Shown piece by piece: positions 11,468-59,112 of a stretch of 64,000 nt of DNA. The notes beneath the pieces were generated by a model that had not been told where the DNA came from, did not search any database, and saw only the letters and a program-made list of their open reading frames with translations. The translations under genes were made by a program, and so were the position numbers. Within the stretch, counting starts at the first letter, position 1. Every line of letters begins with the position of its first letter. Source of the stretch: a virus; the UHGV virus genome UHGV-0214148; one strand, given 5' to 3'.

Positions 11468-11490
11468 CTCCCTTTAATAATATCTATCCA
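11468..11490 (-). promoter_or_regulatory. promoter-like conserved motif, copy 5 (weakest)
   Basis: Minus-sense TGGATAGATATTATTAAAGGGAG, ~90 nt upstream of ATG 11377, immediately after the MCP terminator. Confidence 0.35.
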
Positions 11491-11491
11491 A

Positions 11492-11544
11492 AAAATAATA
11501 GAAAGAAAAAAAAATAAAAGGTCTAAGCCCCGAAGGGCTTAGAC
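11492..11544 (-). terminator. intrinsic terminator after putative capsid gene
   Basis: Stem gtctaagccc / gggcttagac (11521-11544) with 4-nt loop; on minus strand followed by CTTTTATTTTTTTTTCTTTC. Confidence 0.8.
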
Positions 11545-11559
11545 TCTTTTTAAGCAAGA

Positions 11560-13854
11560 TTACTTACCAGCAGCAGCTTTGCCTTCGCCAGCAACGTTAC
11601 CTGCTACACCACCTTCGGTTTGTTTCTGACCGTTCTGTTCAACAGAAACATTGTAAGCCAGTTTTTCTTCAACCAGTTTGGTGATGCCTTTAACCCAGAT
11701 CAGACCAGTGATCGGGCAGTGGCAGATGTGCGCGTTACGCGGCTGTACGGCCAGCTCTTTAGAGGTAGAACCGTTACGCTGAATGTTGATGTTGGTAACC
11801 ATGATCGGAGACCAGAAGTGGTTACCCCAGTTCAGCACGTTGTAGGAACCATCGTCCGCAGTCGGAACTTTCAGGAACCATTGCAGACGACGAGTCCAGG
11901 AACCGTCAGCTGCGTTGTAGATACGCCAGCGGTCATCGTTGGTGGTGATCACTTCGTATTCGTAGCGATCGCCCAGCAGACGTTGGTCGCCCTGTACCAG
12001 CAGCAGCATAGATGCAGTCGGTTCGTCAGTTGCAATAACAACTTTCGGCAGAATGTCCGGATCGGCAGTGTACAGACGCAGCGCAGGAATGAAGCGAGAT
12101 TCCTGGATAGCCTGAGTTACCTGATTACCGATACGCTGTACCAGGCCCTGACGAGCGTTGATCAGTGCATCTTTGGTATCCAGGGACTGTACAACTTCAT
12201 CAACGTTGTAGTCAGACTCTTTGAACCACGGAGCAACCCAGTGACGGCCCAGACCACGAATGGCCGGTTTGTCCCACGGAGTGATCATGCTTGCAGCAGC
12301 GTTACGTACCGCTTCGGTGTAAGACAGCGTCTGAGTGATAGCCAGCTGTTCGTTACGGATGTTAACTGCGGAAATCAGGTCGTCCAGACGTTCGGTATCG
12401 TCGTATTCAACGCCAACCGGAGACTTGGTCAGGATCGGAGAACCGTATTGCAGTTTGTAGTTTTCTTGTTCCCAGATTGGGTCAAGCAGCAGACCCTGGG
12501 TACGACGGTTTTCGTTGGTACGAGTACCATCGAAGCGCCAGCCCATCAGTTCAAGTTTCAGACCGTCCAGGATAACTTTGCCGGTACCAGATTTGGTATC
12601 AACTTTGTTACCGGTAGCGTCGTACAGACCTTCGATTTCCAGTTTGTGACCAGCGATGTCAACTTTACCACCGAACTGACCGGTAGTGAACAGAGACATG
12701 TTGATGGTGATCACATAACGCAGGGTGTAGGAGTTCTGTTCCAGTGATTTCAGTGCCGGAATAGCTTCGCCTTTCCAGTCGGTGGTTTTCGCATTCAGAG
12801 AGAACGCAGTACGACGGAATTGCAGTACCAGCTCACGGCCATCACCTTCAGCAGGACGCTGGAAGGTTGCGAACTGCATGTCACGAACGTGCAGTTTGAT
12901 GAATTTACCTGCTTTCGCTTCTTCGGTCGGTTTACGTACGGAAATCAGCAGGCTGCCCAGAGCACAACCCGGTGCGATTTCATCAGTTTCGTCGTAACCT
13001 TCCTGAACGATACCCGGATGCGCAGACAGCTGGAACAGGTTCAGAGTGTCTTTAGCAAAGCTCAGGTAGTTAGTCGGGTACGGAGGTACACGACCCAGGC
13101 GAACAGATTCGTTCGGTACCAGTTCTTCGCTTACGAAGTATTCAGCGTTTTCACCGGTTTCCATTACGTAAGGAACGATGTTGATCGCTTCGTCCTGAAG
13201 AACGGTGTGGTCAGTCAGCGCTTCGTGCAGGTTACGACGATGATCTTCAACAACGTCTTTGGTCAGTAACGCGTGCATGACACCACGAGAAACGGTGGTC
13301 ACTTTGGTACGTACGGTAATACCAACATCGTTGGTGTCAACGGTGATGGTCGGGAACAGAGTCTCAGCAAAACGAGACTGAGTTTCCAGAGCACGTACGT
13401 TCAGCGTCCAGGTCAGACCCAGGTTTTTGTCGTAATCTTTGTTGGTGTAGTATTCCTGAGCAACAACCATACGCTCTTTGCCCCAGTCGCCGTTACCAGC
13501 TTGGGAACCAGGAATCGCAACGTCCAGGTTAAAACGGCTATGGAATTCTGGCTTAGCGTATTCTTGCGCTACTTTTTCTTGCAGGTCCATACCGTGACCA
13601 GCAGCACCCAGAATCATTGCAGAAGCAACTTCCGCAGCGTGGGACATTTTCTTACCGCCAGCAAACGCGTTTGCGTAGTGCTGTGCAGCATCGTCACGCA
13701 GGGTACCAAAAACTTTCGTGTTGCTACGTACAGACTCACCAGCAACGATGGTGTTCCACATTTCGCCAGCACTGTTGTTACTAATGACGCTTTGTACCAG
13801 CGAGTTACCAGCTTGTACGAGTTTCTCCAGATTAGAGATTCGGGTATCTTTCAT
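11560..13854 (-). CDS. putative major capsid protein (764 aa)
   Basis: ORF track; strongly biased highly-expressed-type codon usage (produces a 375-aa antisense ORF artefact); strong terminator downstream; size matches phiKZ-like jumbo-phage capsid proteins. Function is inference. Confidence 0.55.
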   Translation of the reverse strand: MKDTRISNLEKLVQAGNSLVQSVISNNSAGEMWNTIVAGESVRSNTKVFGTLRDDAAQHYANAFAGGKKMSHAAEVASAMILGAAGHGMDLQEKVAQEYAKPEFHSRFNLDVAIPGSQAGNGDWGKERMVVAQEYYTNKDYDKNLGLTWTLNVRALETQSRFAETLFPTITVDTNDVGITVRTKVTTVSRGVMHALLTKDVVEDHRRNLHEALTDHTVLQDEAINIVPYVMETGENAEYFVSEELVPNESVRLGRVPPYPTNYLSFAKDTLNLFQLSAHPGIVQEGYDETDEIAPGCALGSLLISVRKPTEEAKAGKFIKLHVRDMQFATFQRPAEGDGRELVLQFRRTAFSLNAKTTDWKGEAIPALKSLEQNSYTLRYVITINMSLFTTGQFGGKVDIAGHKLEIEGLYDATGNKVDTKSGTGKVILDGLKLELMGWRFDGTRTNENRRTQGLLLDPIWEQENYKLQYGSPILTKSPVGVEYDDTERLDDLISAVNIRNEQLAITQTLSYTEAVRNAAASMITPWDKPAIRGLGRHWVAPWFKESDYNVDEVVQSLDTKDALINARQGLVQRIGNQVTQAIQESRFIPALRLYTADPDILPKVVIATDEPTASMLLLVQGDQRLLGDRYEYEVITTNDDRWRIYNAADGSWTRRLQWFLKVPTADDGSYNVLNWGNHFWSPIMVTNINIQRNGSTSKELAVQPRNAHICHCPITGLIWVKGITKLVEEKLAYNVSVEQNGQKQTEGGVAGNVAGEGKAAAGK

Positions 13855-16820: not shown

Positions 16821-16821
16821 T

Positions 16822-18228: not shown

Positions 18229-18372
18229 TTAACCACGACCAGTGCACTGTGCAACGGAATTACCGTTGTCGATGCAAGTGTCGTAGCCTTTGTCGATGTC
18301 CAGATACAGGCAACCCAGAACAACAGCGATAACAACAGCGAAGATAGCTTTTTTGTGTTTTACAGAAATCAT
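18229..18372 (-). CDS. small membrane/lipoprotein-like protein (47 aa)
   Basis: ATG 18370-18372 with AGGAG 8 nt upstream; hand translation MISVKHKKAIFAVVIAVVLGCLYLDIDKGYDTCIDNGNSVAQCTGRG; lipobox-like VVLGC; optimal codons; terminator directly downstream; promoter-like motif upstream. Not in ORF track. Confidence 0.55.
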   Translation of the reverse strand: MISVKHKKAIFAVVIAVVLGCLYLDIDKGYDTCIDNGNSVAQCTGRG

Positions 18373-18419: not shown

Positions 18420-18443
18420 CTCACCTAGGTAATATATATCTGA
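18420..18443 (-). promoter_or_regulatory. promoter-like conserved motif, copy 1
   Basis: Minus-sense TCAGATATATATTACCTAGGTGAG, ~48 nt upstream of ATG 18372. Confidence 0.5.
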
Positions 18444-18607
18444 AATCTTTTTGAATCCATATACCCTCTAGAACGCTCTAAAACGCATTCTGACGCAATT
18501 TTCTTTTTAAAGGGTAATTAGTCGTCTTAGCGGTTAAATGACTTCTGCGTGTCGTTTAGGAATAAATAAAAGGTATTCCCGTTACCCATAGAGGTAACGG
18601 GAAGTTT

Positions 18608-19408
18608 TTACAGACCTTGCATCTTATCCATTACAGCGATTTCAGGATCGTTAATGCCCGTCTTCGAAGAAATCATAAAGCGCTTATCGCTAATAGCTTC
18701 TACAGATTCGCGAATAAACAATGACTTTTCTTCCGCAACAGGGAGAATAGAATCGTTATCCTGCGGACCCACAAGCTGACAACTGAATGGCACATAGCTG
18801 TTGAAAGTCACATAAGGACCTAACTGCAAGACCGGATACACTTCATTAAAGTTATTTGATGTACCGCTGTCTGTAGAAATCACAGAATAGCGCACCACCG
18901 CACGAACCGCTGTTGTGTATTCAGGATCGCGGGCTTCACCCACCACGGTAAAACGAAACGCATTGAAGTCGTAGTCTTCCGACTCACTAAAGTGTGAAGG
19001 GAGAATACGTTCAATATACTGAGGATAGGTTTCTTGTTGCCCTGGAACAACCGCTGCAGCTAATTTCTGAGCATAGAAGTAACAATAAGCAAAGCCGTAT
19101 TGCGCTTCTAAAGCACCAGACACCACGGCGGTTGTGATCGCGTGCAGGAACAACAAATGGCCTAACGTCCCTTTTTCTTCGATTGGTAATAAGCGACAAT
19201 TCTGTACACCGTCTACGGTATAAATAACAGAAATCGTTTTGTCAGCACTGGACGCCATGATGTAGTCCAACTGGCGTTGTTCGCCACCAGGAATAACATT
19301 AAGGCAACGTTCTAACAACTTCGACGGTTTCGAAAAATTCTCTTCTTCGAACTTGTCGATTTGAATTAACGTTTGGCCAGACATTCTGAAAGTAAGTAGA
19401 TTACTCAT
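18608..19408 (-). CDS. hypothetical protein (~266 aa)
   Basis: ORF track lists a TTG at 19414; ATG at 19406-19408 has AAAGGA Shine-Dalgarno 8 nt upstream. Confidence 0.8.
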   Translation of the reverse strand: MSNLLTFRMSGQTLIQIDKFEEENFSKPSKLLERCLNVIPGGEQRQLDYIMASSADKTISVIYTVDGVQNCRLLPIEEKGTLGHLLFLHAITTAVVSGALEAQYGFAYCYFYAQKLAAAVVPGQQETYPQYIERILPSHFSESEDYDFNAFRFTVVGEARDPEYTTAVRAVVRYSVISTDSGTSNNFNEVYPVLQLGPYVTFNSYVPFSCQLVGPQDNDSILPVAEEKSLFIRESVEAISDKRFMISSKTGINDPEIAVMDKMQGL

Positions 19409-24250: not shown

Positions 24251-24547
24251 CTATAACAGATAAGGTATACCTTCAAAGATAATCTCATCGTTAGCGAAGC
24301 CAACAGACGCTTCCTCACCCCCAGAGGTGGTTGCCCAAATCTCTGCCGCAAAACGCTGGTTGTTAATCAACAGCCCACGGTTGTTTTCGAACAACACTAT
24401 CAAGATCAACCTGACGCTTTTCTCTTGATGTAAACGGCGTATAAACGCGTGCTTTACAGGAGAAGGATACCAGGTGAAGCGCGCTATTTTCCCTTTCGCA
24501 ACTCTACCTAAAAAGAGCTTTTCTAAGGTTACAAACTCAGTGCCCAT
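24251..24547 (-). CDS. hypothetical protein (~98 aa; start uncertain)
   Basis: Track ORF 24251..24583 overlaps the DHFR 3' end; in-frame ATG at 24545-24547 reduces overlap to 11 nt. Confidence 0.45.
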   Translation of the reverse strand: MGTEFVTLEKLFLGRVAKGKIARFTWYPSPVKHAFIRRLHQEKSVRLILIVLFENNRGLLINNQRFAAEIWATTSGGEEASVGFANDEIIFEGIPYLL

Positions 24548-25073
24548 CTCTTTTCCAAATCTGATAATGCCAACGCGGAACATCGCTATCCGGTTTGGAA
24601 GCGTGCGTTAAGTTATAAACCAGTCTAAACGTGTTACGATCGATTTCAGGAAAGAACGCATCCGCACCATCGACTTTAACTTCTACGCGTGACAAGTAAA
24701 TCTTATCCACGTAAGGTAACGCCTGATGGTAAATTTCTGCACCACCGATAATAAAGATTTCTTTAGGATAACCCTTTTTCTCAACCTCAGTTTTGAGGAA
24801 CTCAATAATCGAACCCATTTCACCCTTAAGGTTAAGCACCCCATCGATTTCGGGCACACCACCAGGTCTTCTCGTCAACACGACATGGTGACGATTAGGC
24901 AGGGGTTTATGCCCTAACGATTCCCATGTCTTGCTTCCCATCACGATAACCTTACCTGATGTAAGTGCCTTAAAATTCTTTAAGTCATCGGGAATACGCC
25001 ACGGTAATTTATTGTCTTTCCCAATTTCGTTATTCAACCCAGCAGCAGCTATCATCGAAACTGTAATTGTCAT
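24537..25073 (-). CDS. folA: dihydrofolate reductase
   Basis: Track ORF trimmed to ATG 25071-25073 (MTITVSMIAAAGLNNEIG...). Classical DHFR motifs: LPW, VIMGSKTWES, PLPNR, IIGGAEIY, FFP. GGAG Shine-Dalgarno upstream; ATGA overlap with upstream gene. Confidence 0.9.
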   Translation of the reverse strand: MTITVSMIAAAGLNNEIGKDNKLPWRIPDDLKNFKALTSGKVIVMGSKTWESLGHKPLPNRHHVVLTRRPGGVPEIDGVLNLKGEMGSIIEFLKTEVEKKGYPKEIFIIGGAEIYHQALPYVDKIYLSRVEVKVDGADAFFPEIDRNTFRLVYNLTHASKPDSDVPRWHYQIWKRDGH

Positions 25074-25375
25074 TTCTTTATCTCCAGTGAGCCTCTTAAA
25101 TGGCGTATAAAATCTTTTCGGGTATACCGACTCGTTTTGTACTGATCGGCTAAATGGTAAACGGTAACGTACCGCCCTTTGGCTTCCATATGCAAATGCG
25201 TTATATTGCCATCGTTCGTAGGGAGTGGTCTGATCAGAGGAATCATCAAATCCCCATTCCAACCAGGTTCATTAAGTCTCGGTATCAGTAATCGAATGTC
25301 TAGCCGTTTTACGCAGTACACCACATTACTTTCCGGCAACTTAACAACACATATCGCATCGGCTTTGAGTTTCAT
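25070..25375 (-). CDS. hypothetical protein (101 aa)
   Basis: ORF track; coupled to DHFR start. Confidence 0.6.
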   Translation of the reverse strand: MKLKADAICVVKLPESNVVYCVKRLDIRLLIPRLNEPGWNGDLMIPLIRPLPTNDGNITHLHMEAKGRYVTVYHLADQYKTSRYTRKDFIRHLRGSLEIKK

Positions 25376-26675: not shown

Positions 26676-26699
26676 CTCACTAAGGTAATATCTATCTGA
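26676..26699 (-). promoter_or_regulatory. promoter-like conserved motif, copy 2
   Basis: Minus-sense TCAGATAGATATTACCTTAGTGAG, between paralog-1 terminator and ATG 26624. Confidence 0.5.
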
Positions 26700-26715
26700 G
26701 ATTATTTTTAATGCG

Positions 26716-26761
26716 AAAAAAAAAAGAAAGGGGAGAACCACCCCATTACAGGGTGGTTCTC
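26716..26761 (-). terminator. intrinsic terminator after paralog 1
   Basis: Stem gagaaccaccc (26733-26743) / gggtggttctc (26751-26761); on minus strand followed by CCTTTCTTTTTTTTTT. Confidence 0.75.
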
Positions 26762-26779
26762 TTACTAAACAATCAGGGA

Positions 26780-28042: not shown

Positions 28043-28118
28043 TTTAAGCTTTTCCTCTAAGGGGAACACGTCGTTCCCCTATTGATTTATTTCAAGAACT
28101 GTACGAGCGTAAGTCTAA

Positions 28119-36359: not shown

Positions 36360-36360
36360 G

Positions 36361-47803: not shown

Positions 47804-49513
47804 TTATTTACGACGTCTAAAACGTCGGGATACGCCTTTAAAACTTTTTCGAGAAAACTTGCTAAGTTCAGACCGGCATACGGCGCGGTTGGCTCTGTTG
47901 GCTGCGGCGGTAGTAACATCAGCTTTCCTTACAATATACGGTGAGGTGGCTATCTTAAACGACAACACAGAATCACTCAGTGATTTTTGACGCGCATTCA
48001 AATAATTACAATGCTTCGGTATCGAATAAGAATGGAATAACCACACAACGGGATCGAGTTCACCCCAGTCGTTGTGGAGAATCTTACGAGGGCGTCCGGC
48101 CATCTGGCGGTTTAACTGCTGGTCTTCCACAGGGGTAGTGATGTACATGTGTACCAACCCCGGTTTGTCGACCGCAGTACCTGCTTTCCCTGGTGTTGAA
48201 ATAGAGAAATCCGCTTGAATAAAGTCGTCATACGAATCCCCTGCGTTATATTTCGCAACCATCAAAGCGTGGAACTTATCAGATTGTGCGAGCTTCTCTC
48301 GCACGTAATCCGTAAAGAACTCACACATTGCGACGGTTGCAAACAACACCAACACTTTCTGACCAGGTTGATAACCTGCCAGATACGTCCGTTCTATTAC
48401 ATCCCAGACCATATCCGCGTACGACTGATGAAGGTTTTCGCTAATCAGCTTCCCTTCAAACAGTTTGTGGTTATACGGGGTCATCTTCGTTGCCCACCAC
48501 GCAAACCGTTTATTCTCAATTCGGTAATACAACGCTTTCACGTGCACCGCAGGAATAATCGGAATGGTGATACGTGCCTCTTGTGGGAAACGTTCTTTAT
48601 ACCGTTCTGCCAAGAACGCTTTCGATTCACCCGGTTGGAGTGTGGCTGACATCTCAACAGAGGGCGGCGGATTCAACATAATTCCAGCCATGTACACCAA
48701 GTGGAAATGTTCGTGCACTTCATCCATCGATAAAAACCCAACACCTAGCGTGTTATAGAAATCATCGATGTTCGCTGGGTTAGTCGCAGCGGTATTGATA
48801 TATTCTTTCAAAAACCGCTGTAACGTCACTGTAGAGACGATAATAACTTTGATGCCACGTTTATCCAACTCACCACTTTCACCCATTTCTAGCGCTTCGT
48901 AGACCGCTTGTACGCCCTGTATAACCAAGACGTCCTCTTTCGATTCACGAAGTCCAGTAGGATCTTCCGTTAAGTCGAATAACCATTTAGAGATGTACGT
49001 GGGTCGATGAATCAATAACGTTCTTACCCCTTTACGAACCATCACTTTCATGTTCGTCTTCGACTTACCCATCCCTGTACCAATCTCAAAGATGGTTTGT
49101 AAGCGGTTAGGCTGGCACGCCGTTTCTACAACGCCATTCTGATAAAAGAAACGTGACGACTCATCTTCTTCTATCATGTTAAAGCCGTAGTTTTCAAACG
49201 TACAGCGGTAAGGTGTTCCCTGGGTTAAGTGGTGCTCGTAGAGTTTAAAGTCAATAGCAAACTCAGCGGCCGTTCGGTTAATAATGATTCGTAAACGTTC
49301 GGAAAAATTCCGGTGGAATATAAAGGTACGGATAGAAGGTATATGCGCGTAATACGGATCGCCACGTTCGGTGATGATTCTTCCGTATTGTTTACCCATT
49401 TTCGGGGCGTGCATATTCTCTTCTGCCCACTTTAGGATTGCCGACTCTATAGGTCGACAAGGGACTTCGACCCTCACGCCCATGCTCGTAAAGGTCATGT
49501 GGAATTCGTACAT
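47804..49513 (-). CDS. SF2 DExH-box helicase
   Basis: ORF track; Walker A GTGMGKSKT, Walker B DEVHE, motif III SAT, motif VI QMAGRPRK. Confidence 0.8.
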   Translation of the reverse strand: MYEFHMTFTSMGVRVEVPCRPIESAILKWAEENMHAPKMGKQYGRIITERGDPYYAHIPSIRTFIFHRNFSERLRIIINRTAAEFAIDFKLYEHHLTQGTPYRCTFENYGFNMIEEDESSRFFYQNGVVETACQPNRLQTIFEIGTGMGKSKTNMKVMVRKGVRTLLIHRPTYISKWLFDLTEDPTGLRESKEDVLVIQGVQAVYEALEMGESGELDKRGIKVIIVSTVTLQRFLKEYINTAATNPANIDDFYNTLGVGFLSMDEVHEHFHLVYMAGIMLNPPPSVEMSATLQPGESKAFLAERYKERFPQEARITIPIIPAVHVKALYYRIENKRFAWWATKMTPYNHKLFEGKLISENLHQSYADMVWDVIERTYLAGYQPGQKVLVLFATVAMCEFFTDYVREKLAQSDKFHALMVAKYNAGDSYDDFIQADFSISTPGKAGTAVDKPGLVHMYITTPVEDQQLNRQMAGRPRKILHNDWGELDPVVWLFHSYSIPKHCNYLNARQKSLSDSVLSFKIATSPYIVRKADVTTAAANRANRAVCRSELSKFSRKSFKGVSRRFRRRK

Positions 49514-49523
49514 GCTCCCCTCT

Positions 49524-49551
49524 TACAAAAAAAGAGGGGCGCAGGCCCCTC
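49524..49551 (-). terminator. intrinsic terminator between beta-prime-like gene and helicase gene
   Basis: Stem gaggggc (49534-49540) / gcccctc (49545-49551); on minus strand followed by TTTTTTTGT. Confidence 0.6.
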
Positions 49552-49555
49552 TCGT

Positions 49556-51655
49556 TTACTCAATGATAGTCGCGGCCACCGTATTGTCGTATAACGACGC
49601 CGGACGTTTACGCGACGTGTAGAAACGCACGTTGTCCAGGTTTTTCTGTTGGCCTTCGAATAACAACATCGGTACAGCTGAACGCATCGCAATCAACGTA
49701 TTGTGATCCTCGAAACGTTTGCCATCCATCACATCAGCATCTTCACTATCAAACCCAACCGCCGGGAAAGGATTGGTCGGTGATTCAACGCGTGATATCG
49801 CCAGCATAATCGCGATGTGTGTCATCGGAATACCACCGAGCTTACGTTGGATATATTTAAACACATCAAATAACGCGTGCGTACATTGCTTTTCTGTAGC
49901 ACCGCGCATCTGAACCAGTGTCGTTGGTTTTACCTTACCCGACTTCTTGCTCAAGCGCATTGAGTCATCAGAGAACTGTTCGAAAGTATCCGATTTATCA
50001 GATGCAACCGAACGAAGTTTCAATTCTAACCCTGCTACAAACTCCGCCATAGATTCAGACCGATTCGTATAAATTAGTATCGGCCAACTCGGCTTCCAAC
50101 CTTTCAGAGGAATCCGTACCAGTTTCTTCGACGGAAACGTAATGTTATCACGCTGCTTCAGGAAGAAATGCAAGAAGGCTTTCGAGAAGTTACCACAAAC
50201 CCCCATACGGACGTCAATGGGATCTTCAGCCAACACATTCCCAGCTTCATCCAACCGCAAAAAGGTCAGTTCGTTAATCTCCGGCAATGCCGTTTCGTCA
50301 ATCACTTCCAAATCGTCGTGATACGCGATTTGGCTGATTTCAGAATAGACTTCATCAGAAATAACGAGTTGGTATTCATCCCAATTACCGTACTGTGGTT
50401 TCTCCCGTAAACTCAACCCTTTTACGGAGTTGTGTTTATACTCCCCAAGATAATCCCGCATTCTTGGGGTCAGCACCAGATTCAGCAGATAACGTAAGAA
50501 GTCCAAGTGCTTCGTTGAGAGAATCCCCTGCGTACCCTTTACAGATATCGAGGTTGAGGCCAAGTGACCTGGGGATGTTCCCGGCGAAAGGTTATAAATC
50601 AAATCACCCATGCATGTTGCACAAATGCTTTGACGTGCCATCCCCTTACAACACATCGCGGTACGAAACTCAATAGGTTTGCCTAAGACTTTCTCAAACT
50701 CCCCTTTCTCGAATCGTAGCCACGGGCCACCCACACCTTCAAAACGATAACGCATCCCTACCATCGCATCGTACTTCTTACGCTCCAGTTTACTTTCTGT
50801 AAACGTGTGGCGATGAACATGATGCGTACCACAATCGTCGTATTCGAAATACATTAACACGTTGGCTGCTAACTGTAGCTTACGTGACGCATATTCCGCA
50901 TCGGCGATTTTATCGGTATTATACAGGTGAGAACGTGACGTTGCTCCCGCTTCTTTCAGACGACTAATTACAGAATGTAGACCCGTAAAGAAACCTTCCC
51001 ATACCTGGTTAGAATAAACACGAGAATCAATCTCTGATGTTTTCCCGCGTATATACGCCTGAAGAACCTGGTTCATTTTGATGGTCTTATCCAAGACCGA
51101 CATCACCACAGGGTTTAAACGAAGTTGTGGGTCTTTGAAGATATCTTCGATAAGAAGATACGCTTCCTCAACCATATCCCGACCTTCTTCGTCGTACCCA
51201 GTAGGATACATTTGTGCCCACTGATGAATCTGCGTAAAGTTTCGGTGTTGGTAAATTTCCATCATCGTATCGTAGTCAATCGTGACGCAATACGATAACA
51301 AATTTTTCACCGATAAATTAAACGCATCCGCATAAACGTGCTGCTGTAATAAATAACGGGTGTCTGCTAAATCCACACCCGCTTTACGAGCCGCTACAGC
51401 TGCCAATGACATAAACTTCAGATGTGCGTCGTCTGTAGCAGTATCGCCATGTTTATACGCCATTTGCGAACTGATTGGGATCTGCGGATAAAATCGTGTT
51501 AGCCCCCAATAAGGCCAACTGATTTTAATGTGACGTCCTGACATGTTTAAGGTTACCCCGTCATCAAACGTCACTTCATATCTGCCGCGCAATAGCCACA
51601 CCTGATCCGAGTTCAGTTTACACAGATCACGCACGTGAACTGGAGTGCCCTTCAT
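49556..51655 (-). CDS. possible RNA polymerase beta-prime-like subunit (bridge-helix region)
   Basis: ORF track; coupled to beta gene (TAATG). Segment KGTQGILSTKHLDFLRYLLNLV resembles the beta-prime bridge helix (G.RKGLADTALKTA.SGYLTRRLV). No NADFDGD motif present. Confidence 0.4.
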   Translation of the reverse strand: MKGTPVHVRDLCKLNSDQVWLLRGRYEVTFDDGVTLNMSGRHIKISWPYWGLTRFYPQIPISSQMAYKHGDTATDDAHLKFMSLAAVAARKAGVDLADTRYLLQQHVYADAFNLSVKNLLSYCVTIDYDTMMEIYQHRNFTQIHQWAQMYPTGYDEEGRDMVEEAYLLIEDIFKDPQLRLNPVVMSVLDKTIKMNQVLQAYIRGKTSEIDSRVYSNQVWEGFFTGLHSVISRLKEAGATSRSHLYNTDKIADAEYASRKLQLAANVLMYFEYDDCGTHHVHRHTFTESKLERKKYDAMVGMRYRFEGVGGPWLRFEKGEFEKVLGKPIEFRTAMCCKGMARQSICATCMGDLIYNLSPGTSPGHLASTSISVKGTQGILSTKHLDFLRYLLNLVLTPRMRDYLGEYKHNSVKGLSLREKPQYGNWDEYQLVISDEVYSEISQIAYHDDLEVIDETALPEINELTFLRLDEAGNVLAEDPIDVRMGVCGNFSKAFLHFFLKQRDNITFPSKKLVRIPLKGWKPSWPILIYTNRSESMAEFVAGLELKLRSVASDKSDTFEQFSDDSMRLSKKSGKVKPTTLVQMRGATEKQCTHALFDVFKYIQRKLGGIPMTHIAIMLAISRVESPTNPFPAVGFDSEDADVMDGKRFEDHNTLIAMRSAVPMLLFEGQQKNLDNVRFYTSRKRPASLYDNTVAATIIE

Positions 51656-53892
51656 TATTCATCGCCCCTTTTCATTTTCACCAATTCAAACCCTTCACAG
51701 TTGTGGATGTTTTTCATCATCCTGTCAATCTGCGAATCCCCTAACGGGAATTTATTCCGGTCTACTAATGGACCCGGATTAGATGGGGTTTGAGATCGAT
51801 AAAGCCCTACTAAAATCTCACGATGTACCGCAGGGTTATTTGCCCTGTCGTGAACTTCTTCGTAGTTACCTGGACCATAACCCGCTAACAGTCGTTCTTC
51901 CGAAGGACCAGCCCATTTTAGCGTTTTATAGTTTATCGGATACGAGCCACGACCTTGGTTAGACGCGTCTATCGTACCCAGATAATTCAGATACATTGAC
52001 GAGATACTGGAAAACTCACGACCTGTTTTATCCAGACGTAATGTCTCCACACCACCTACGTAAAACTCATTTTTTGTCCATTCCTGTTTACCATCGAAAT
52101 TAGTAATCAGGAGTTTGGATTTACGCGGTTTAAATTCACCCAACCGTTCACTAATATCGACTGGTGTGTCGTCAAGTTCATGTGGTAAGTAAATACGGAT
52201 TGTAAAATCGTAAATCTCTTTGAAAAGTTCGCGTTGTAAATCCTCCGTAGGATGTGTTACCTGTAGTGTGTTGGCCCATTCAGGATTAAAGCGTGACAGA
52301 TAATCCATCAGAATTTCCCAACACTCACTGATACGACCTTCGTCCAGCATCGGTTTAAGACGCATCTTCAACTGCTCAGACGCAGCTGACCAATACATGT
52401 GGAATAATGCTGCATAAGTCGAGCGACGAATTACAGCGTTCATCGAACGTAAAACGTGAACACGTTCACCGAATTCGTTAATCGGCATCTGTTCAACGGG
52501 TAATACACGACCAACAATCCCTTTCGTGCCCGAGCGGTCGGTAATCTTAGACGACACCGTTACCGGGATCGGATAACGAACAGCAATACGAATGGTATAC
52601 GTGTTGATGGGATCGCTGAGTCCACGTTGTACTGGTGAGGTCAACTTAGAAAGAATCTGCTGACTGACATTTTCTTTACCGTATTCACCACGACGAATTG
52701 CTTCATCAATCACCACGCGTATCTCTTCACGAAACTCGTGATAGACCTCGTACGTTTCAGAAGCGAACGCTTTTTCCAACAACACACACGCTTTCGGCGA
52801 CCAGATAATATTTTTGTCACGGGACATCGAGAAATAGAATCGTACGATGGCATTGTAATAGTCTTTCAATGCTAATGCGTATTTATCCAGTTCTCGTTTG
52901 TTCTCTTCGGTACAAGAAATATTGTTAGCACCATTCGCGCAAGACGTTTCATCACGCCACACCTGGATATCGACGATACGTGTACCGCTACGTTCCATCA
53001 GTTCTTTGTCGCCTGCAAGGCGTGCTTTATAGTGAACGGGATCGGCATCCACATATTCGCAGCTATCGAAGAACGGAGAGACGTGTTGGGTTTCCCCAAG
53101 CGACGCATCAATTGCACCGTAAAGCTCATCGAAACGACGCGATGCAATGACCAACCCATCGTCACGAATAGCCTCCCCCACATCCGGGAAATACCGTGGG
53201 ACGCGATTACCGTTCGGATCGATATAACCGTAAGTATCCAGTAAAAACTCGTCTTCACGTAGCGTCTTTTCAACGATTTTCAAACCATAACCGTGGAGTT
53301 TTTGGGCGGCGTACTCAGAGATGGTGTAGGAATCCTCGATGATATCAGGATGCGAAATCGTAACGGTTGGTAACACGACGCTATCGGCGTACTCGCCTTC
53401 CACCATACACGACATCGTTGTAAGGATTTCATCCTTTTCCAACTGATCGGTTTCGCCACGTAAAATACTACGCAGTTTCATCGACTCACGTTTCTCAGAT
53501 GAGAAGATGTTGTCGTGGTTAGTATAGAAATTAATCTCCAGCACATCTATCATGGTTTTACCGCCCTTCATTTCTGCACGGCGGAAGAAGATAGCATGTT
53601 CCAACGCTTTAGAATCCCCACGACGTCCATAACGTGTAAACGTCGCGCGGCGCTGACGACCGTCTTTGGTCATATAGTGGCAGATGCTACCGGGATCTTC
53701 TACAACGTCATTGAACAGAAAATCGTGGTAGTTTATATCAGCCCCTGTAAAATGTGGCGATGGTTCAGGATTGTCGATAGGGACCGCAGACTTCATATGG
53801 TTGCCTACCATCGATGCCCTTGCACCTGATACTTCGGTGATATTAATCTCACGGTCAGCCACACTGCTCATTAGCTCTACTGGCGTTTTCAT
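51655..53892 (-). CDS. multisubunit RNA polymerase beta subunit, C-terminal half
   Basis: ORF track; GEYADSVVLP matches beta NGYNFEDS; RSGTKGIVGRVLPVEQMP...LRSMNAVI matches beta GNKGVISKINPIEDMP...SRMNIGQ. AAAGGAG Shine-Dalgarno; promoter-like motif ~22 nt upstream. Confidence 0.8.
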   Translation of the reverse strand: MKTPVELMSSVADREINITEVSGARASMVGNHMKSAVPIDNPEPSPHFTGADINYHDFLFNDVVEDPGSICHYMTKDGRQRRATFTRYGRRGDSKALEHAIFFRRAEMKGGKTMIDVLEINFYTNHDNIFSSEKRESMKLRSILRGETDQLEKDEILTTMSCMVEGEYADSVVLPTVTISHPDIIEDSYTISEYAAQKLHGYGLKIVEKTLREDEFLLDTYGYIDPNGNRVPRYFPDVGEAIRDDGLVIASRRFDELYGAIDASLGETQHVSPFFDSCEYVDADPVHYKARLAGDKELMERSGTRIVDIQVWRDETSCANGANNISCTEENKRELDKYALALKDYYNAIVRFYFSMSRDKNIIWSPKACVLLEKAFASETYEVYHEFREEIRVVIDEAIRRGEYGKENVSQQILSKLTSPVQRGLSDPINTYTIRIAVRYPIPVTVSSKITDRSGTKGIVGRVLPVEQMPINEFGERVHVLRSMNAVIRRSTYAALFHMYWSAASEQLKMRLKPMLDEGRISECWEILMDYLSRFNPEWANTLQVTHPTEDLQRELFKEIYDFTIRIYLPHELDDTPVDISERLGEFKPRKSKLLITNFDGKQEWTKNEFYVGGVETLRLDKTGREFSSISSMYLNYLGTIDASNQGRGSYPINYKTLKWAGPSEERLLAGYGPGNYEEVHDRANNPAVHREILVGLYRSQTPSNPGPLVDRNKFPLGDSQIDRMMKNIHNCEGFELVKMKRGDE

Positions 53893-53913
53893 TTTAATGC
53901 TCCTTTAGGTTGA

Positions 53914-53937
53914 TTCAGTAGGATAATATCTATCTCA
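53914..53937 (-). promoter_or_regulatory. promoter-like conserved motif, copy 3
   Basis: Minus-sense TGAGATAGATATTATCCTACTGAA, ~22 nt upstream of beta gene ATG 53892; sits in the divergent region with plus gene 53956. Confidence 0.5.
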
Positions 53938-53955
53938 CTTATTTTAGGAACGATT

Positions 53956-54279
53956 ATGTTAGACAATTTTATTACCCTAGAAGAATTCATACCTGCGCCT
54001 TACACCACGACATGGAAAGTGATGCACGATTACACAGACTATCTGCGTAAACACCCGAAAACTAAAATAGAAAATGTTGACCCACGCTACAGTTGGCCTG
54101 AGGTCCACAATTTCTACGCCTACTGTAAACTCAAAGGTTACGCCGATATCATTATCTATCCGATGATGCTATTAAACGGGCTAGAAGACCCCATGAATTT
54201 CACCCCTGAAATCACGCAACTAATCGTACCCGACGTCGGAACGGTTAGTGAGATTATTAGCACCATCGGTAATGATTAA
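53956..54279 (+). CDS. hypothetical protein (107 aa)
   Basis: ORF track; AGGAA Shine-Dalgarno upstream; bidirectional terminator downstream. Confidence 0.65.
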   Translation: MLDNFITLEEFIPAPYTTTWKVMHDYTDYLRKHPKTKIENVDPRYSWPEVHNFYAYCKLKGYADIIIYPMMLLNGLEDPMNFTPEITQLIVPDVGTVSEIISTIGND

Positions 54280-54310
54280 AAAAAGAAGGGACCGAGTCCC
54301 TTCTTTTATA
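54277..54310. terminator. bidirectional intrinsic terminator
   Basis: A-run, stem aagaagggac (54283-54292) / gtcccttctt (54296-54305), 3-nt loop, T-rich tail. Confidence 0.75.
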
Positions 54311-54316
54311 CTTCAC

Positions 54317-55672
54317 TTAACGCGTAAATGCCGAAGTTGCAAATCCACCGAAACTGCTGTTCGTTGCAAATGCTGAACTCGTGCTAAACGCGCTAGTCCC
54401 ACCGACATCCCCGCTGAAAGAATTATTCCCTCCACCAAAGGTACTTGCCAAAGAGCCTCCGGTATTCCCTACACCAAAAATACTCTGACCACCGAAAGGT
54501 GACACCTTGCGCTCACCACCAAACGCATCCACAACAGAAATTCGACTTACCATACCGTTGGCAGGGCTAGTTGTTCCGTGTTGCTCAGCGTAACGTTGCA
54601 TCGCTGGCGTCAAATTCCCATAAGGACTTCGCGCGGCCATGTTACGTTCACGAGCACGGAAGAATTCCATCGGATCTGACTTATCCGCTTTATCCGCATC
54701 CGATGCACGTTTTTGTGGAATCTGCTGCGGAGCCTGCGCACGATCGATACGGAAATCATGCGCCGTGGTATCACGTTCAGGGCTGTCAGAACGTGGGCCG
54801 GTGTTATACGGTAAAGTCTGAATAACGTTATCGTAAATATCCATATTGTCCAGCTGAGAAATCCATTCATCTTCCAACGGACGTAAAGATGTGTGGTCGC
54901 GCAATCCCTTAACGACATTATTGTAATTCACAACGTACTGCGCCCAGCCACGTGCTAAGCAACCGAAATACGGACGCGAATCATTAGACCCCGTTACGCT
55001 CGGATACCAACCGAACACGGTGGTCAGTAAACGGTGGATAATGATTTTGTCTTGTTTACGTTGAAGCTTCGCAGAGAAGTACATTGCAGTACCATCTAAC
55101 GATTCTTCTTCGAACATATTCCGATAATTAGCTACGCGGTTAAACTTCACGCCGTCGATAACTAAATCAGATGCAATAAAAAGCTGGGTGATCTTGTGCT
55201 TTTTATCTTTTTCCAATTGTCCATAGACGAACGCTTTCACCGCTTCCCAGGATTTCACCAAACGTTCGTCGAACGTCGGATCTTTCATCCCTTCGCAAAT
55301 CTGTTCTGTTAAGAACTTCTTGTAGGATGCAGAACGTACTGCTTTACCACTTGCCCCCGTTTCCAGAATCGCGTCGATTAATGCAAAGGAACGAATGAAC
55401 AGGTTCGCATTAATGGATTTCTTCAGGAAACGAATTGTCCCTGATTCACCTGCCAGTACCGATTCACACAGTGGATGAAATGCCTGACATTCACGACCAT
55501 CATCGTCTTCCATACCACGCTTAATCATCGCTGGGGTGGGAAGCGCCAAACGGCGCTTCACTTTGTTATACGTAAACTCTGCCGGTTCACCACCGTCACG
55601 AGTGAGTAAATCGTTTTCAAAATCGAATCCTTGTGATTTAAGAAACGATTTGTAGAATTCAATAATTTTCAT
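54317..55672 (-). CDS. hypothetical protein (451 aa) with Gly/Ser/Phe-rich C-terminal tail
   Basis: ORF track; AAGGA Shine-Dalgarno; C-terminal ~60 aa FGGQSIFGVGNTGGSLASTFGGGNNSFSG...FGGFATSAF. Confidence 0.8.
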   Translation of the reverse strand: MKIIEFYKSFLKSQGFDFENDLLTRDGGEPAEFTYNKVKRRLALPTPAMIKRGMEDDDGRECQAFHPLCESVLAGESGTIRFLKKSINANLFIRSFALIDAILETGASGKAVRSASYKKFLTEQICEGMKDPTFDERLVKSWEAVKAFVYGQLEKDKKHKITQLFIASDLVIDGVKFNRVANYRNMFEEESLDGTAMYFSAKLQRKQDKIIIHRLLTTVFGWYPSVTGSNDSRPYFGCLARGWAQYVVNYNNVVKGLRDHTSLRPLEDEWISQLDNMDIYDNVIQTLPYNTGPRSDSPERDTTAHDFRIDRAQAPQQIPQKRASDADKADKSDPMEFFRARERNMAARSPYGNLTPAMQRYAEQHGTTSPANGMVSRISVVDAFGGERKVSPFGGQSIFGVGNTGGSLASTFGGGNNSFSGDVGGTSAFSTSSAFATNSSFGGFATSAFTR

Positions 55673-55694
55673 TTAAGAGTCCTTGATTAATCTT

Positions 55695-57401
55695 TTACTC
55701 GCCGAATGCACCAAAGCCAGACACTGGCGCAGAGGTTGACATATCGCCACCACCAAAGCTACCGAAGCTACCCAGGCTCGTAGGTGCAGACACAGGGGCA
55801 GTTGGGATATTCGACAGGATATTCGAACGGTTCTGACCACGGTTGAATTCTTGGTACCCTTCTTCCACTTTGTTCATCAGCTGCGCTGTTTCTGCAGCTA
55901 ACTGGTTCGTGTACTGAAGGTCAGTCGTTGTACCACAATGCAGACGTGCTTTCATGAACGACGCATGAGTATAATACTCAGGTAGCTCACCATCGATTTC
56001 GATTTCAATACGTGAAACCACCCCAACGATACACGTTACGGTCATCTTACAACGAATACGGTTGTGTTTAGTCACTTGCAAGAACACGCCTTGTAAGTCA
56101 CTTAAGAAGCGACGTGCTAACACATCCGGTAATCCGTCTTCAGTTAATGCCCCAACGTTGTGTTTTGACACTTGCAGCAGAGGAGGTGTTGCAATATCCG
56201 CCATACGGTTATCGTAGAAGAAAGTCACTTCGCCGATAAGGTTACGAGTGACCACAGGCCCCAGTAACATGGCTAAATCAAATGCCACCAACGAACCCTG
56301 AGTAGAATAGTTGTTACGTCCTACCCAATCATCGGTGCGTTCAATTTCACCAAAACCACGACGGGCTGCGACAGCCAGCGAGTGCGCAATTGCAGCATCC
56401 ACATCTTCGGGATTAATCACCGCGTTACGCAGGTCGCACAGTTTGAATGCTGCACGGTTCGCAACGTTCCAACCGCTAGTCATATCGGACGTGGCGTTGG
56501 ATATGGCGGTTCTAAAAGCCTTCACCAACTCGTAACTGTTGAAATTACGCATCACACCAATCTGGCTAAGTTCAGATTCTACCCCAAGAGAATGATCTCC
56601 TGCGAAGAAGCTGTCTACTGCGCTCAACTCCGTTTCAATCCCCATGGTGTTAATAAAGGAATTGGAGATCGCCGTCACGAAAGATTCTGGTCTGGTTAAT
56701 TGACTAGACATCAACTGTGGCGCACGCTGGCAATTAGCGGAGATAACGGTGTTGTTATCCAGCTCAATCTGCTCACCTGCTTTCACCACTTTACGCACCA
56801 TATCAGCTGCTTTCGCGGTAGAAATAACGTCAATGGTGTGCTCTACATAGCTGTCTGCGGTTAATGTCTTGGACAACACATAGTTGTCTATCAAACGGAA
56901 GGAATCCGGGTTGATACGACGTCCACCAAACGCATCGGTGATATACGTACATTGTAACCCGTATATTTCGTTGATATACAGAACCATGTCATCCGGCAGG
57001 TGATTAAACATGGATCGCTCTGCCTGGGACGTATACCCGGAAACAACATAACGTGTTTCTTGAGTCCGTGTGTCATTTAACGAGTTCGAAACAATAATCG
57101 CCACGAAGTTATACACACCAGTATCGCGAGAATTATACGCAAAATGGATTGGTTGCGATTCGTTATCACTCACGTTAATGAATGGACGTTCAATGCCAGT
57201 TGGGGTATTGTCGAAACCCACAATCTGCCCCAAGGCTTCTTGATAAGCCCGAGAACCTGTTGCTTTATCACCATGTTCTGCAACCACATCCACTAACTCA
57301 TCCAAAGCGTGCTGCGATTCAAAGAACCCAATGCGACGACGAATCTGCTCTGGGATTTCGTACACTGGATACATTTGTAGTTTCAAAAGTTTCATTGCCA
57401 T
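55695..57401 (-). CDS. hypothetical protein (568 aa) with Gly/Ser/Phe-rich C-terminal tail
   Basis: ORF track; AAAGGAG Shine-Dalgarno; C-terminus SLGSFGSFGGGDMSTSAPVSGFGAFGE. Confidence 0.8.
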   Translation of the reverse strand: MAMKLLKLQMYPVYEIPEQIRRRIGFFESQHALDELVDVVAEHGDKATGSRAYQEALGQIVGFDNTPTGIERPFINVSDNESQPIHFAYNSRDTGVYNFVAIIVSNSLNDTRTQETRYVVSGYTSQAERSMFNHLPDDMVLYINEIYGLQCTYITDAFGGRRINPDSFRLIDNYVLSKTLTADSYVEHTIDVISTAKAADMVRKVVKAGEQIELDNNTVISANCQRAPQLMSSQLTRPESFVTAISNSFINTMGIETELSAVDSFFAGDHSLGVESELSQIGVMRNFNSYELVKAFRTAISNATSDMTSGWNVANRAAFKLCDLRNAVINPEDVDAAIAHSLAVAARRGFGEIERTDDWVGRNNYSTQGSLVAFDLAMLLGPVVTRNLIGEVTFFYDNRMADIATPPLLQVSKHNVGALTEDGLPDVLARRFLSDLQGVFLQVTKHNRIRCKMTVTCIVGVVSRIEIEIDGELPEYYTHASFMKARLHCGTTTDLQYTNQLAAETAQLMNKVEEGYQEFNRGQNRSNILSNIPTAPVSAPTSLGSFGSFGGGDMSTSAPVSGFGAFGE

Positions 57402-57431
57402 TGTAAATGCTCCTTTAGGTCAAGCCGAAAA

Positions 57432-59060
57432 TTATTGATTAAACCATGCTACTTCTTCGCATTTCTTTCTGTTTTGAATTAACAGAAATTCTGCTAACAT
57501 GTTCTGAAGTCGCGGATGAGGTGAATAGTCCAACATCACTGTCCCACACCGTAACATTCTGGCTGCTTCCGGTGTTGCCCTGAGATTGAAGTTGAACGGC
57601 GCAATATGTTCACGAACCAACAAGCTGAGAGAATCCTTCAATGTTGATTGTTCGTAAGTATTACGATGTTTACGGTATGCTTGTGGATAATATCTATCCG
57701 TTTTTATTTTAATCTCATTATCGATAGGCTCGATGGGATACCCGCCATTTAGTGGTGCCCGGATCATTTCACAACTTAACAACTGTGCAATCTCAGGCAT
57801 TCCGTAATAGATGTAAACGGCTTGGGATATACCCATCGCGTTCTTAAACGCTTCTGAGTCGATTTCCTTGTATGTACGACGATCTGCAAATCGGTGCATC
57901 ACTGCCGCCACCAACCATTCGTAGAGTTCGTAGAACGGATATTGATGATTAATGTTGATGGAATCTATCAACACTTTCACATCAGCGGGAGCAATATCGA
58001 GATTCAAAGCACGTACCGCACGACGATAGTCATTAAAGAATTCTTGGGTACGAACGAATTCCTTCATTGGTGCTTTAGTCCGAGCTTGAACCAGGTCAAT
58101 CGACGAAGTTTTCCCCTTCTCGCCATTGAACATGATTTTCTCAGGATTCGCTTTTAACATCACGTTTTGGCCGGAAATTTTTCCCGCGAAGCCCGTTTCG
58201 ATTTCTTGTCGAATATTGAAATACATCCCCGCCACGATGTTGTTTTCAACCATCGTACCTGGCGGTAGTTCGGCACCGATTAACTTCATTGCAATTAAAC
58301 GGATAACGGCGAACGCTATGATGTATTCCTCTACCATATCCGTACCGTAGCCACAGATAGATGCCAGGACGGTAAGGTTTGCAGTATTGGGTCCTTTACT
58401 CCCTCCGTCCTGAACTTTCGAAATCACCGACACTAAAAACTCACGCAACTTTGTAATGGCTGGCAGTGTAGCAATCTCGGTATCAGACAACAACTCCATG
58501 CAGTAGGTCAGGTTATAAACACTTTTGCGCTTCGACTCAACAGAAGCGCGTGTTGCAGGAAAAGCGTCCAAAATCAAGAATACGGGAATAAACGGTTTTG
58601 TCATCAAAGACAAAATCACCAATTCGTAATAATCTTGTACGATATACGTCATCTCTTTTGGATAATTCGACGACATCTCTTCGTACGTTTCGTGGACGTT
58701 TTGAGGAATCCACACCGAACCGTGTGGATAAAGCTGGCGGAATCTATCTGCGTGATGAAATTTAGCAATTCTCGCGACGAGCGTGGGGACGTGTTCACGA
58801 ATAACTTCTGGGGGTTCATTAGCTAACAACTCTAATTCTTCGTAAACTGAAAACAGTTCGCTTTTCTCTTCAGGCGTTAAAGTTGACCAATAACGCTCGA
58901 TTTCCATGAACATGATTTTATCGTGCGTTACGATCTGTCCGAAACTATCGCGTACGTCTGGCACATTCACGTCTTTACGTCCATTTCGGAAACCATTAAA
59001 CGCGACCTCTTTTTCGCCGTACTTTATCACTAAACGGTCACGATTCTTTTCAATGCGCAT
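57432..59060 (-). CDS. hypothetical protein (~542 aa)
   Basis: Track ORF starts upstream at a non-ATG codon (59144); ATG at 59058-59060 (MRIEKNRDRL) has GGAG Shine-Dalgarno 9 nt upstream and lies ~30 nt downstream of promoter-like motif copy 4. Confidence 0.75.
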   Translation of the reverse strand: MRIEKNRDRLVIKYGEKEVAFNGFRNGRKDVNVPDVRDSFGQIVTHDKIMFMEIERYWSTLTPEEKSELFSVYEELELLANEPPEVIREHVPTLVARIAKFHHADRFRQLYPHGSVWIPQNVHETYEEMSSNYPKEMTYIVQDYYELVILSLMTKPFIPVFLILDAFPATRASVESKRKSVYNLTYCMELLSDTEIATLPAITKLREFLVSVISKVQDGGSKGPNTANLTVLASICGYGTDMVEEYIIAFAVIRLIAMKLIGAELPPGTMVENNIVAGMYFNIRQEIETGFAGKISGQNVMLKANPEKIMFNGEKGKTSSIDLVQARTKAPMKEFVRTQEFFNDYRRAVRALNLDIAPADVKVLIDSININHQYPFYELYEWLVAAVMHRFADRRTYKEIDSEAFKNAMGISQAVYIYYGMPEIAQLLSCEMIRAPLNGGYPIEPIDNEIKIKTDRYYPQAYRKHRNTYEQSTLKDSLSLLVREHIAPFNFNLRATPEAARMLRCGTVMLDYSPHPRLQNMLAEFLLIQNRKKCEEVAWFNQ

Positions 59061-59088
59061 TTTAAAATCTCCAGGAATAACATAGTCG

Positions 59089-59112
59089 TCCACTAAGATA
59101 AAATCTATCTCA
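59089..59112 (-). promoter_or_regulatory. promoter-like conserved motif, copy 4
   Basis: Minus-sense TGAGATAGATTTTATCTTAGTGGA, ~29 nt upstream of ATG 59060. Confidence 0.45.

Follow-up and report, generated by a model that had tools for sequence, protein, structure and literature searches.

Jumbo phages that encode RNA polymerases have been reviewed as carrying, in every case, a conserved motif upstream of their presumed early operons, which is AT-rich, about 10 nt long and centred near position -10 (PMC7598289). In those whose transcripts have been profiled, this AT-rich motif is the early promoter and is necessarily read by the virion polymerase (PMC7598289). According to later summaries, the best-known member, phiKZ, possesses 28-32 early promoters (Ceyssens 2014 as summarised in PMC7598289, PMC8244752, PMC10914365), and in phiKZ and AR9 the early promoters are active right after infection without new protein synthesis and despite rifampicin (PMC7598289). 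Here, we analyze a 64,000-nt stretch of the virus genome UHGV-0214148, henceforth termed the window, in which an AT-rich motif with a 13-nt core recurs upstream of minus-strand genes. We identify six copies and propose that, with high probability, they act as early promoters in a phiKZ-related jumbo phage that resembles SPN3US.

Several descriptions of such promoters are close enough for a direct comparison. Early promoters have been predicted for the Klebsiella phage N1M2 (TBYAWWWWWTTTCARRYAKATATTATYWAAGTGWA) and the Pseudomonas phage OBP (BSHAWWWWWTTTYARRYAKATATTATYWWADTG; PMC7058600, Table 2), and the same source tabulates ...TATATTAC...GTG for 201phi2-1 and TATATTAC for phiKZ (PMC7058600). 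For 201phi2-1, ONT-cappable-seq located an early promoter upstream of gp124, with an AT-rich motif ~10 bp upstream of the start site, while the beta and beta' genes (gp129/gp130) were assigned to a middle promoter, with no early promoter reported nearby (PMC11512511). Two proteins are informative for assigning polymerase genes: the phiKZ non-virion RNA polymerase requires gp68, its fifth, sigma-like subunit, for promoter recognition (PMC13282480), and SPN3US gp42 is a proven subunit of the virion polymerase (PMC5694885). In our literature search, no study came to light that describes the transcriptome or the early promoters of SPN3US-like phages in particular.

The repeated AT-rich motif in the window is real. 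All five minus-strand copies that the original prediction had placed at 11468-11490, 18420-18443, 26676-26699, 53914-53937 and 59089-59112 are present, each built around a 13-nt core resembling GATAGATATTAYC (11476-11488, 18428-18440, 26684-26696, 53922-53934 and 59097-59109; below s11, s18, s26, s53 and s59). The AT-rich core follows the consensus GATA(G/T)ATATTA(C/T)C. A T-rich/TCAG element is found ~4-6 nt upstream of it and an A-tract ~10 nt further upstream, and on the downstream side a short spacer leads to a conserved (A/C)(G/T)TGA block. The consensus written out in the prediction describes this motif, except that the site at 18420-18443 deviates from it at one base. From the 3' end of the core to the start codon we measured 30, 37, 56, 60 and 99 nt, in agreement with the predicted 22-91 nt when distances are counted from the end of the 24-nt motif as originally delimited.

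A search for the pattern AGATAKATWTTAYC with at most one mismatch returned five matches in the window, against 0.12 expected, and none of 100 dinucleotide-preserving shuffles reached this count. The weak core at 11476-11488 is not among the five and was recovered by a slightly shorter core pattern; one match is instead a sixth site overlooked in the first inspection (57686-57699, minus strand; s57), which lies within the 3' end of gene 57432..59060. When both strands of the window were scanned with a 40-nt weight matrix built from all six sites, the sites scored 29-43 bits and the next-best position on either strand 13. Against circularity, each site was also removed from the matrix in turn and 127,922 positions were ranked: every one of the five reported sites was the top non-training match (16-33 bits), including s11 with 16.1 bits. 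Since only its core fits the motif, s57 scored lower (8.5 bits, rank 13). The refuting pattern named in the prediction, equal motif frequency in coding DNA or on the other strand, was not observed in the window. Five of the six sites are intergenic although intergenic DNA makes up 5.4% of the window (binomial P=2.6e-6), and none occurs on the plus strand; of 60 called genes, ~50 are on the minus strand. When 8-mers in the intergenic DNA were counted without bias, the recurrent words were T-runs, ribosome-binding-site words, motif words and a shared terminator stem, and no second promoter class was found.

The proteins and gene order of the window identify it as part of an SPN3US-like jumbo phage that is related to phiKZ. 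Comparison of the window proteins with the SPN3US genome by tblastn revealed near-complete colinearity in reversed orientation, the window running from ~83 kb to 19 kb of SPN3US. The protein encoded at 51655..53892 is most similar to those of Erwinia phage Asesino (77% amino acid identity) and Salmonella phage SPN3US (70%), with remoter matches in phiKZ-like phages of Pseudomonas, Ralstonia, Vibrio and others, and the product of the capsid gene 11560..13854 shares 79% identity with SPN3US gp75. At the DNA level, the nearest entry in the phage collection showed 72% identity across 15% of a 10-kb query; as this is not a close record, the source is an SPN3US-like jumbo phage that the collection does not represent.

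The original prediction had pointed to a likeness to the early promoters of phiKZ-like phages. We scanned the window with the published consensus strings, blind to the predicted coordinates. The five reported sites show 2-5 mismatches to the 33-nt OBP string and 4-7 to the 35-nt N1M2 string, and at up to six mismatches the OBP string retrieves these five and nothing else in the whole window; the intragenic s57 differs from the two strings at 8-10 positions (8 for OBP). Because a blind consensus scan picks exactly the five sites, this comparison was right, and the motif follows the same promoter grammar. The agreement with OBP and N1M2 is nearly position for position, comprising the A/T tract, TTTCA, RRYAKATATTAY, the spacer and GTG, although those consensus sequences are bioinformatic predictions from other genera, and the lineage of the window favors TCAG or TGAG before the core and C after TTAY. 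With the phiKZ promoters the window sites share a ~10-nt AT-rich core containing ATATTAC/T, a T-rich element upstream, a position at the head of early operons that include the non-virion polymerase genes, and a similar number (~24 in SPN3US); s18 even contains the exact phiKZ octamer TATATTAC. Unlike in phiKZ, the core is extended on its 5' side to GATAG or GATAT, with C or T at the last position of A-T-T-A-Y. Moreover, start sites and rifampicin resistance were shown experimentally for phiKZ, whereas the promoters described here are predicted from sequence. The 201phi2-1 motif differs in using GAGATTTATATTAC.

Similarity to other phage-read promoters is looser. In AR9/PBS2, too, an injected multisubunit polymerase reads an AT-rich motif that is over-represented near -10 upstream of early genes, but the consensus is a different one and these are distantly related Bacillus jumbo phages whose DNA contains uracil (PMC5312081). 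The promoters of N4 and T7-type phages are likewise phage-specific, use a phage-encoded polymerase (injected in the case of N4) and bypass host sigma factors. Their polymerases are, however, unrelated single-subunit enzymes that recognize DNA hairpins (N4) or 23-bp duplex sites (T7), and these promoters have no sequence or structural likeness to the window motif. With regard to variation of the core, two variants can be distinguished, ATATATTACCTAGGTGAGAG and ATAGATATTATCTNNGTGA, and the SPN3US and window sites come in two core flavors, CAGATATATATTACCTAGGTGAGAG and GAGATAGATATTATCT..GTGA (compare s18 with s53 and s59), the latter of which forms a 5-nt inverted repeat (AGATA-N5-TATCT).

The matrix derived from the window also performs in a second genome. 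Applied to all of SPN3US, it detected ~24 sites above 19 bits, all on the plus strand, the one that carries most SPN3US genes; minus-strand matches were only weaker reverse-complement echoes of the same ~24 sites. Nearly all (22-23) are intergenic, ~30-270 nt from the start of a plus-strand gene, and they precede gp5, 9, 22 (two sites), 30, 34, 55, 66, 76 (two), 99, 101, 112, 125, 135, 175, 180, 209, 221, 249, 263 and others. Each of the six window sites has an SPN3US counterpart at the orthologous position, and the gap between gp75 and gp76, orthologous to that of s11, contains two. More partial comparisons gave the same picture: in Asesino we found five sites, i.e., all those within the stretch examined, with the s26 counterpart upstream of Asesino gp72 (gp55 in SPN3US), and three sites each in Caitlin and in pEa_SNUABM_38, which is more distant (54% polymerase identity), again all those within the examined stretches. 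The site orthologous to s59 is present in Asesino, SPN3US, Caitlin and pEa_SNUABM_38, and all told orthologous positions carry the motif in four genera besides that of the window phage. In an alignment of s53 from five phages, the conserved islands are the core, the upstream A-tract and the ribosome-binding site, with an otherwise diverged spacer, and in four phages aligned at s18 TTTCAGATATATATTACCT is invariant.

Conservation of promoter positions extends to 201phi2-1. The order of its genes gp121-gp131 corresponds gene for gene to window positions 61878..47804, the common series being SbcD, two further genes, gp68-like, gp69-like and gp70-like genes, a small divergent gene, beta, beta' and a helicase. 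Within this 17.6-kb locus, the two best matrix matches lie upstream of gp124, the counterpart of s59, and upstream of gp128/gp129, the counterpart of s53; the latter (TTTGAGATTTATATTACTAAAGTG, L017:7287-7326) is a good match in the divergent gap before the beta gene. The early promoter mapped in 201phi2-1 shares with s59 both its motif and its place in front of the gp68 homologue (gp124 in 201phi2-1, 57432..59060 in the window). The spacing agrees as well: in 201phi2-1, beta and beta' are 5.2 and 7.4 kb away, and the start of the gene behind s59 is separated from 53892 and 51655 by these same distances.

Which genes follow the motif is informative in itself. As predicted, an RNA polymerase beta gene, the first gene of a block containing dihydrofolate reductase (DHFR, 24537..25262) and a small lipoprotein-like gene are located behind s53, s26 and s18. 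The prediction had counted two hypothetical genes among the remainder; one of these, 57432..59060, is in fact a homologue of phiKZ gp68. It matches PHIKZ068 with E=2.8e-10 (residues 42-453 against 34-433 of 521) as well as chains of the phiKZ non-virion polymerase structures PDB 7OGP, 7OGR, 8QUE and 9RJS. The window encodes both polymerase types, namely gp68-, gp71- and gp74-like non-virion subunits and one virion subunit, the gp42 orthologue 42294..43595, with the remaining subunits encoded outside it. Judged by homology, the polymerase genes led by the motif belong to the non-virion polymerase: s53 and s59 precede such genes, and as far as sequence goes the suggestion of a regulon that includes the phage's own polymerase is borne out. 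No motif precedes the gp42 orthologue, and none was found at the plus-strand structural genes of the window. SPN3US shows the same pattern genome-wide, with sites at the non-virion polymerase genes (gp23 via gp22, gp34, gp35) and at the gp68-like gp30, and none upstream of the five virion-polymerase genes (gp42, gp218, gp240/241, gp244). This division, with the motif before non-virion and not before virion-polymerase genes, is the one expected if an injected enzyme makes a second enzyme (PMC7598289, PMC13282480).

The sixth site, s57, differs from the others in being embedded in a coding sequence. Near the 3' end of the gp68-like gene, its core is read in frame as D-R-Y-Y-P (GAT AGA TAT TAT CCN), and its position within the codons is unchanged in Asesino, SPN3US and Caitlin. 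pEa_SNUABM_38 has GAA ATA (E-I) as the first two codons instead of D-R, which brings the DNA closer to the core variant of this phage (its other two sites have AAATATAT / GCATATAT). When the five genes were aligned by codon, the stretch of five codons containing the s57 core ranked first of 493 both by mean nucleotide identity (0.89 vs a gene mean of 0.56) and by third-position identity (0.84 vs 0.38). These ranks point to selection on the DNA itself, and such selection makes an internal early promoter for the downstream gp69/gp70-like genes likely. On the other side, no intragenic copy was found in 201phi2-1 gp124. Overall, we regard the chances that s57 serves the gp69/gp70-like genes as an internal early promoter as roughly even. 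The fuller proposal, in which a promoter inside the gp68-like coding sequence has been kept across at least five SPN3US-like genera, constrains the D-R-Y-Y-P codons and gives the gp69/gp70-like genes an independent early start, would fall a little short of an even chance. If true, s57 would clearly exemplify co-evolution between a protein sequence and a promoter for a phage polymerase.

By analogy with phiKZ, 201phi2-1 and AR9, a virion-packaged multisubunit RNA polymerase would be injected with the DNA and recognize the core centered near -10. Initiation would take place in or beside the downstream GTGA block, approximately at positions 17-19 counted from the first G of the core (compare PMC7598289, PMC11512511), which predicts 5' leaders of ~26-95 nt. 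Early transcription could then begin immediately upon infection without host polymerase, and upstream terminators would insulate most units from read-through. These units appear to encode host-takeover and replication functions together with three non-virion polymerase subunits (gp68-like, beta-like and beta'-like), and the non-virion polymerase would subsequently take over middle and late transcription. The s57 copy probably provides the two genes downstream of it with their own early start.

A number of observations weigh against this model. The beta and beta' genes of 201phi2-1 were assigned to a middle promoter despite the motif in front of them, so that a match guarantees no dominant start site. 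What the model says about start sites, early timing and dependence on the virion polymerase is borrowed from phiKZ, 201phi2-1 and AR9, and in vitro initiation at such a motif by a purified virion polymerase was not encountered in our literature search. The s57 copy has no GTG block downstream, and outside the core its score is low. The evidence from the phage itself covers 64 kb of its genome. Finally, the motif is partly dyad-symmetric (AGATA-N5-TATCT, flanked by TCTCA...TGAGA), which leaves room for a DNA-binding regulator.

This symmetry speaks for the motif being mainly an operator, bound by a phage-encoded or virion-borne regulator such as an early shut-off repressor or an activator, rather than a recognition element for a polymerase; in line with the arms AGATA-N5-TATCT, several sites reach 9-20 bits when scored as their reverse complement. 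Yet the motif is directional, with 30-43 bits in forward and at most 20 in reverse orientation, and all six window sites and all ~24 SPN3US sites are oriented with their downstream gene. In phiKZ and 201phi2-1, it additionally lies at a fixed distance of ~-10 from mapped primary 5' ends (PMC7598289, PMC11512511). We therefore consider a mainly regulatory site unlikely, whereas regulator binding as an additional role is possible and compatible with promoter function. Decidedly unlikely, in our judgment, is that the sites are host sigma-70 early promoters as in T4, with the ATATTA core as -10 box and the A-tract as UP element. The core does hold -10-like hexamers (TATATT, GATATT) downstream of an A-rich tract, and some polymerase-encoding jumbo phages are rifampicin-sensitive (PMC7598289). 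However, when both window halves holding sites were scanned for TTGACA-like and TATAAT-like hexamers 16-18 nt apart, no such minus-strand pair coincided with any of the six sites, and matches were depleted if anything (18 vs 26.6 expected and 26 vs 31.8 expected). Conservation is strongest at positions that sigma-70 would leave unread, GATAG 5' and YC..GTGA 3' of the -10-like hexamer. The same motif moreover occurs in phages of Pseudomonas, Klebsiella, Erwinia and Salmonella (PMC7058600), and early transcription of phiKZ is rifampicin-resistant (PMC7598289).

The motif's occurrence in the leaders of co-directional gene strings, with one copy inside a gene, would also suit an element acting at the RNA level, either a site at which longer transcripts are processed or an element of their 5' leaders. 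However, four sites come immediately after strong terminators, and a fifth is situated in a divergent gap without an upstream co-directional transcript; there is no associated conserved fold and no Rfam match, and the window contains no tRNA. The phiKZ ends downstream of the motif were called primary starts by differential RNA sequencing based on terminator exonuclease (TEX; PMC8244752). We regard such an element as very improbable. Simple chance is hardly credible at all: AT-rich words could recur in AT-rich intergenic spacers, and the window has only six sites, but no shuffle matched the count, the scores are separated by a clean gap, and orthologous positions are conserved in five to six phages against a background of diverged flanking spacer. 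Early promoters of the phiKZ type thus remain, in our view, by far the most probable function of the motif.

The arrangement of the transcription units agrees with the original description of the sites as usually following a terminator, as a strong minus-strand hairpin with T-run is found upstream of four of them (Table 1). The exception is s53 (53922), which has a divergent intergenic region in place of a terminator. A hairpin upstream of s59 also exists in the relatives, with different sequence. Beside s26, a plus-strand ORF (26711..28060, 449 codons) was considered as a gene and rejected as an antisense shadow of the minus-strand ORF 26780..28069 (429 codons): the latter shows 59-61% identity to its SPN3US and Asesino counterparts vs 40-43% for the antisense frame, has normal codon-position composition (GC) and is a paralogue of its neighbor 28119..29390. 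The description of s26 as following a terminator therefore stands. The s11 site has the major capsid gene on one side and the gp76-like/DNA-polymerase-like block on the other.

Table 1. Motif sites, genes behind them and upstream terminators in the window. Site sequences are aligned on the core, which forms the middle segment.
Feature	Coordinates	Strand	Sequence	Remarks
Site s59	59097..59109	-	AGTCGAAGTTATCTGA-GATAGATTTTATC-TTAGTGGACGA	40-nt motif 59086-59125; 37 nt 5' of gp68-like gene ATG
Site s57	57686..57698	-	GATTAAAATAAAAACG-GATAGATATTATC-CACAAGCATAC	intragenic; 285 nt 5' of gp69-like gene start codon
Site s53	53922..53934	-	TTCCTAAAATAAGTGA-GATAGATATTATC-CTACTGAATCA	divergent intergenic region; 30 nt 5' of beta-like gene ATG
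Site s26	26684..26696	-	ATTAAAAATAATCTCA-GATAGATATTACC-TTAGTGAGATT	60 nt 5' of first gene in DHFR-containing block
Site s18	18428..18440	-	ATTCAAAAAGATTTCA-GATATATATTACC-TAGGTGAGAGT	56 nt 5' of 47-codon lipoprotein-like gene
Site s11	11476..11488	-	TTTCTATTATTTTTTG-GATAGATATTATT-AAAGGGAGACG	weakest of the five reported; 99 nt 5' of ATG 11377
gp68-like gene behind s59	57432..59060	-		SPN3US gp30 orthologue, there annotated hypothetical
Two conserved genes behind s57	54317..57401	-		SPN3US gp31 and gp32 orthologues; phiKZ gp69/gp70-like by synteny; no solved-structure or Pfam match
Non-virion polymerase beta-like gene behind s53	51655..53892	-		phiKZ gp71/73 homologue; SPN3US gp34 orthologue; PHIKZ071, E=3.4e-29
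Non-virion polymerase beta'-like gene, next after the beta-like gene in the same unit	49556..51655	-		PHIKZ074, E=3e-31; SPN3US gp35 orthologue
First gene behind s26	25983..26624	-		no family match
Lipoprotein-like gene behind s18	18229..18372	-	MISVKHKKAIFAVVIAVVLGC...	47 codons; positional counterpart of SPN3US gp66
Block behind s11	6901..11377	-		gp76 orthologue; polymerase-family protein (phrog_2943; gp77 orthologue); gp78 orthologue
Terminator-like hairpin + T-run	59152..59173	-		just 5' of s59; 9 pairs, 7 G-C
Terminator-like hairpin + T-run	26733..26761	-		after gene 26780..28069, just 5' of s26; 13 pairs
Terminator-like hairpin	18576..18603	-		after gene 18608..19408, ~135 nt 5' of s18; 12 pairs
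Terminator-like hairpin + T-run	11521..11544	-		after major capsid gene 11560..13854, just 5' of s11; 10 pairs

Two of the sites have additional features in their surroundings. About 20-45 nt upstream of the s18 core (18458-18487, minus strand), a tandem CGTTTTAGAG-CGTTCTAGAG is followed by GGTATA. This block is kept in Asesino, SPN3US and Caitlin within a diverged spacer, is restricted to the s18 promoter and is possibly a regulator-binding site. Around s18, ~90 nt are conserved and matched by megablast in Erwinia phages, which we attribute to the joint conservation of the promoter and this separate upstream block; a structured RNA was considered as the cause and rejected, the consensus fold being weak (-4.8 kcal/mol). 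The predicted s11 leader (11377-11472, minus strand, 95 nt) has a strong ribosome-binding site (AAGGAG) and, after it, two mini-ORFs of ~7 and 16 codons that overlap each other; the start at 11377 after them has no obvious ribosome-binding site.

Elsewhere in the window, the terminators at the convergent junctions 36360-36410 and 41724-41770 have a nearly identical stem, ATTACCCTACTCC...GGAGTAGGGTAA, followed by a T-run, which recalls the conserved terminator motifs of phiKZ and 201phi2-1 (PMC11512511). A module of ~102 nt occurs three times among tiny ORFs on the minus strand (16317-16418, 16713-16814 and 17033-17134), each copy with three successive hairpins: a variable one (GGGGTGCT..CACCCC), an invariant palindrome (GCTTTAACTTTTCGAAAGAGAAGTTAAAGC) and one with compensatory stem changes (CAGTAGAGACTG/CAGTCTCTACTG, CAGGGTACGCTG/CAGCGTACCCT and CAGTAGGGACTG/CAGTCCCTACT). 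It had no Rfam or tRNA match and may function as a compound terminator or form a small structured RNA.

Taken at the level of sequence comparison, the motif is the SPN3US-clade version of an already known class of early promoters and in this respect an ordinary finding. What the analysis adds is an intragenic sixth site with nucleotide-level conservation, the gp68-like gene behind s59, and promoter positions that are conserved as far as 201phi2-1. It provides a map of predicted early transcription units for this part of an uncharacterized SPN3US-like jumbo phage and indicates which polymerase genes would make up the early-expressed non-virion enzyme, including a gp68-like subunit formerly regarded as hypothetical. 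The promoter grammar of A-tract, TCAG, ATATTAY core and GTG is conserved from Pseudomonas to enterobacterial phages, down to single orthologous positions. While our knowledge of how these phages work is unchanged, the sites should be useful for annotation, as targets for 5'-end mapping and for engineering.

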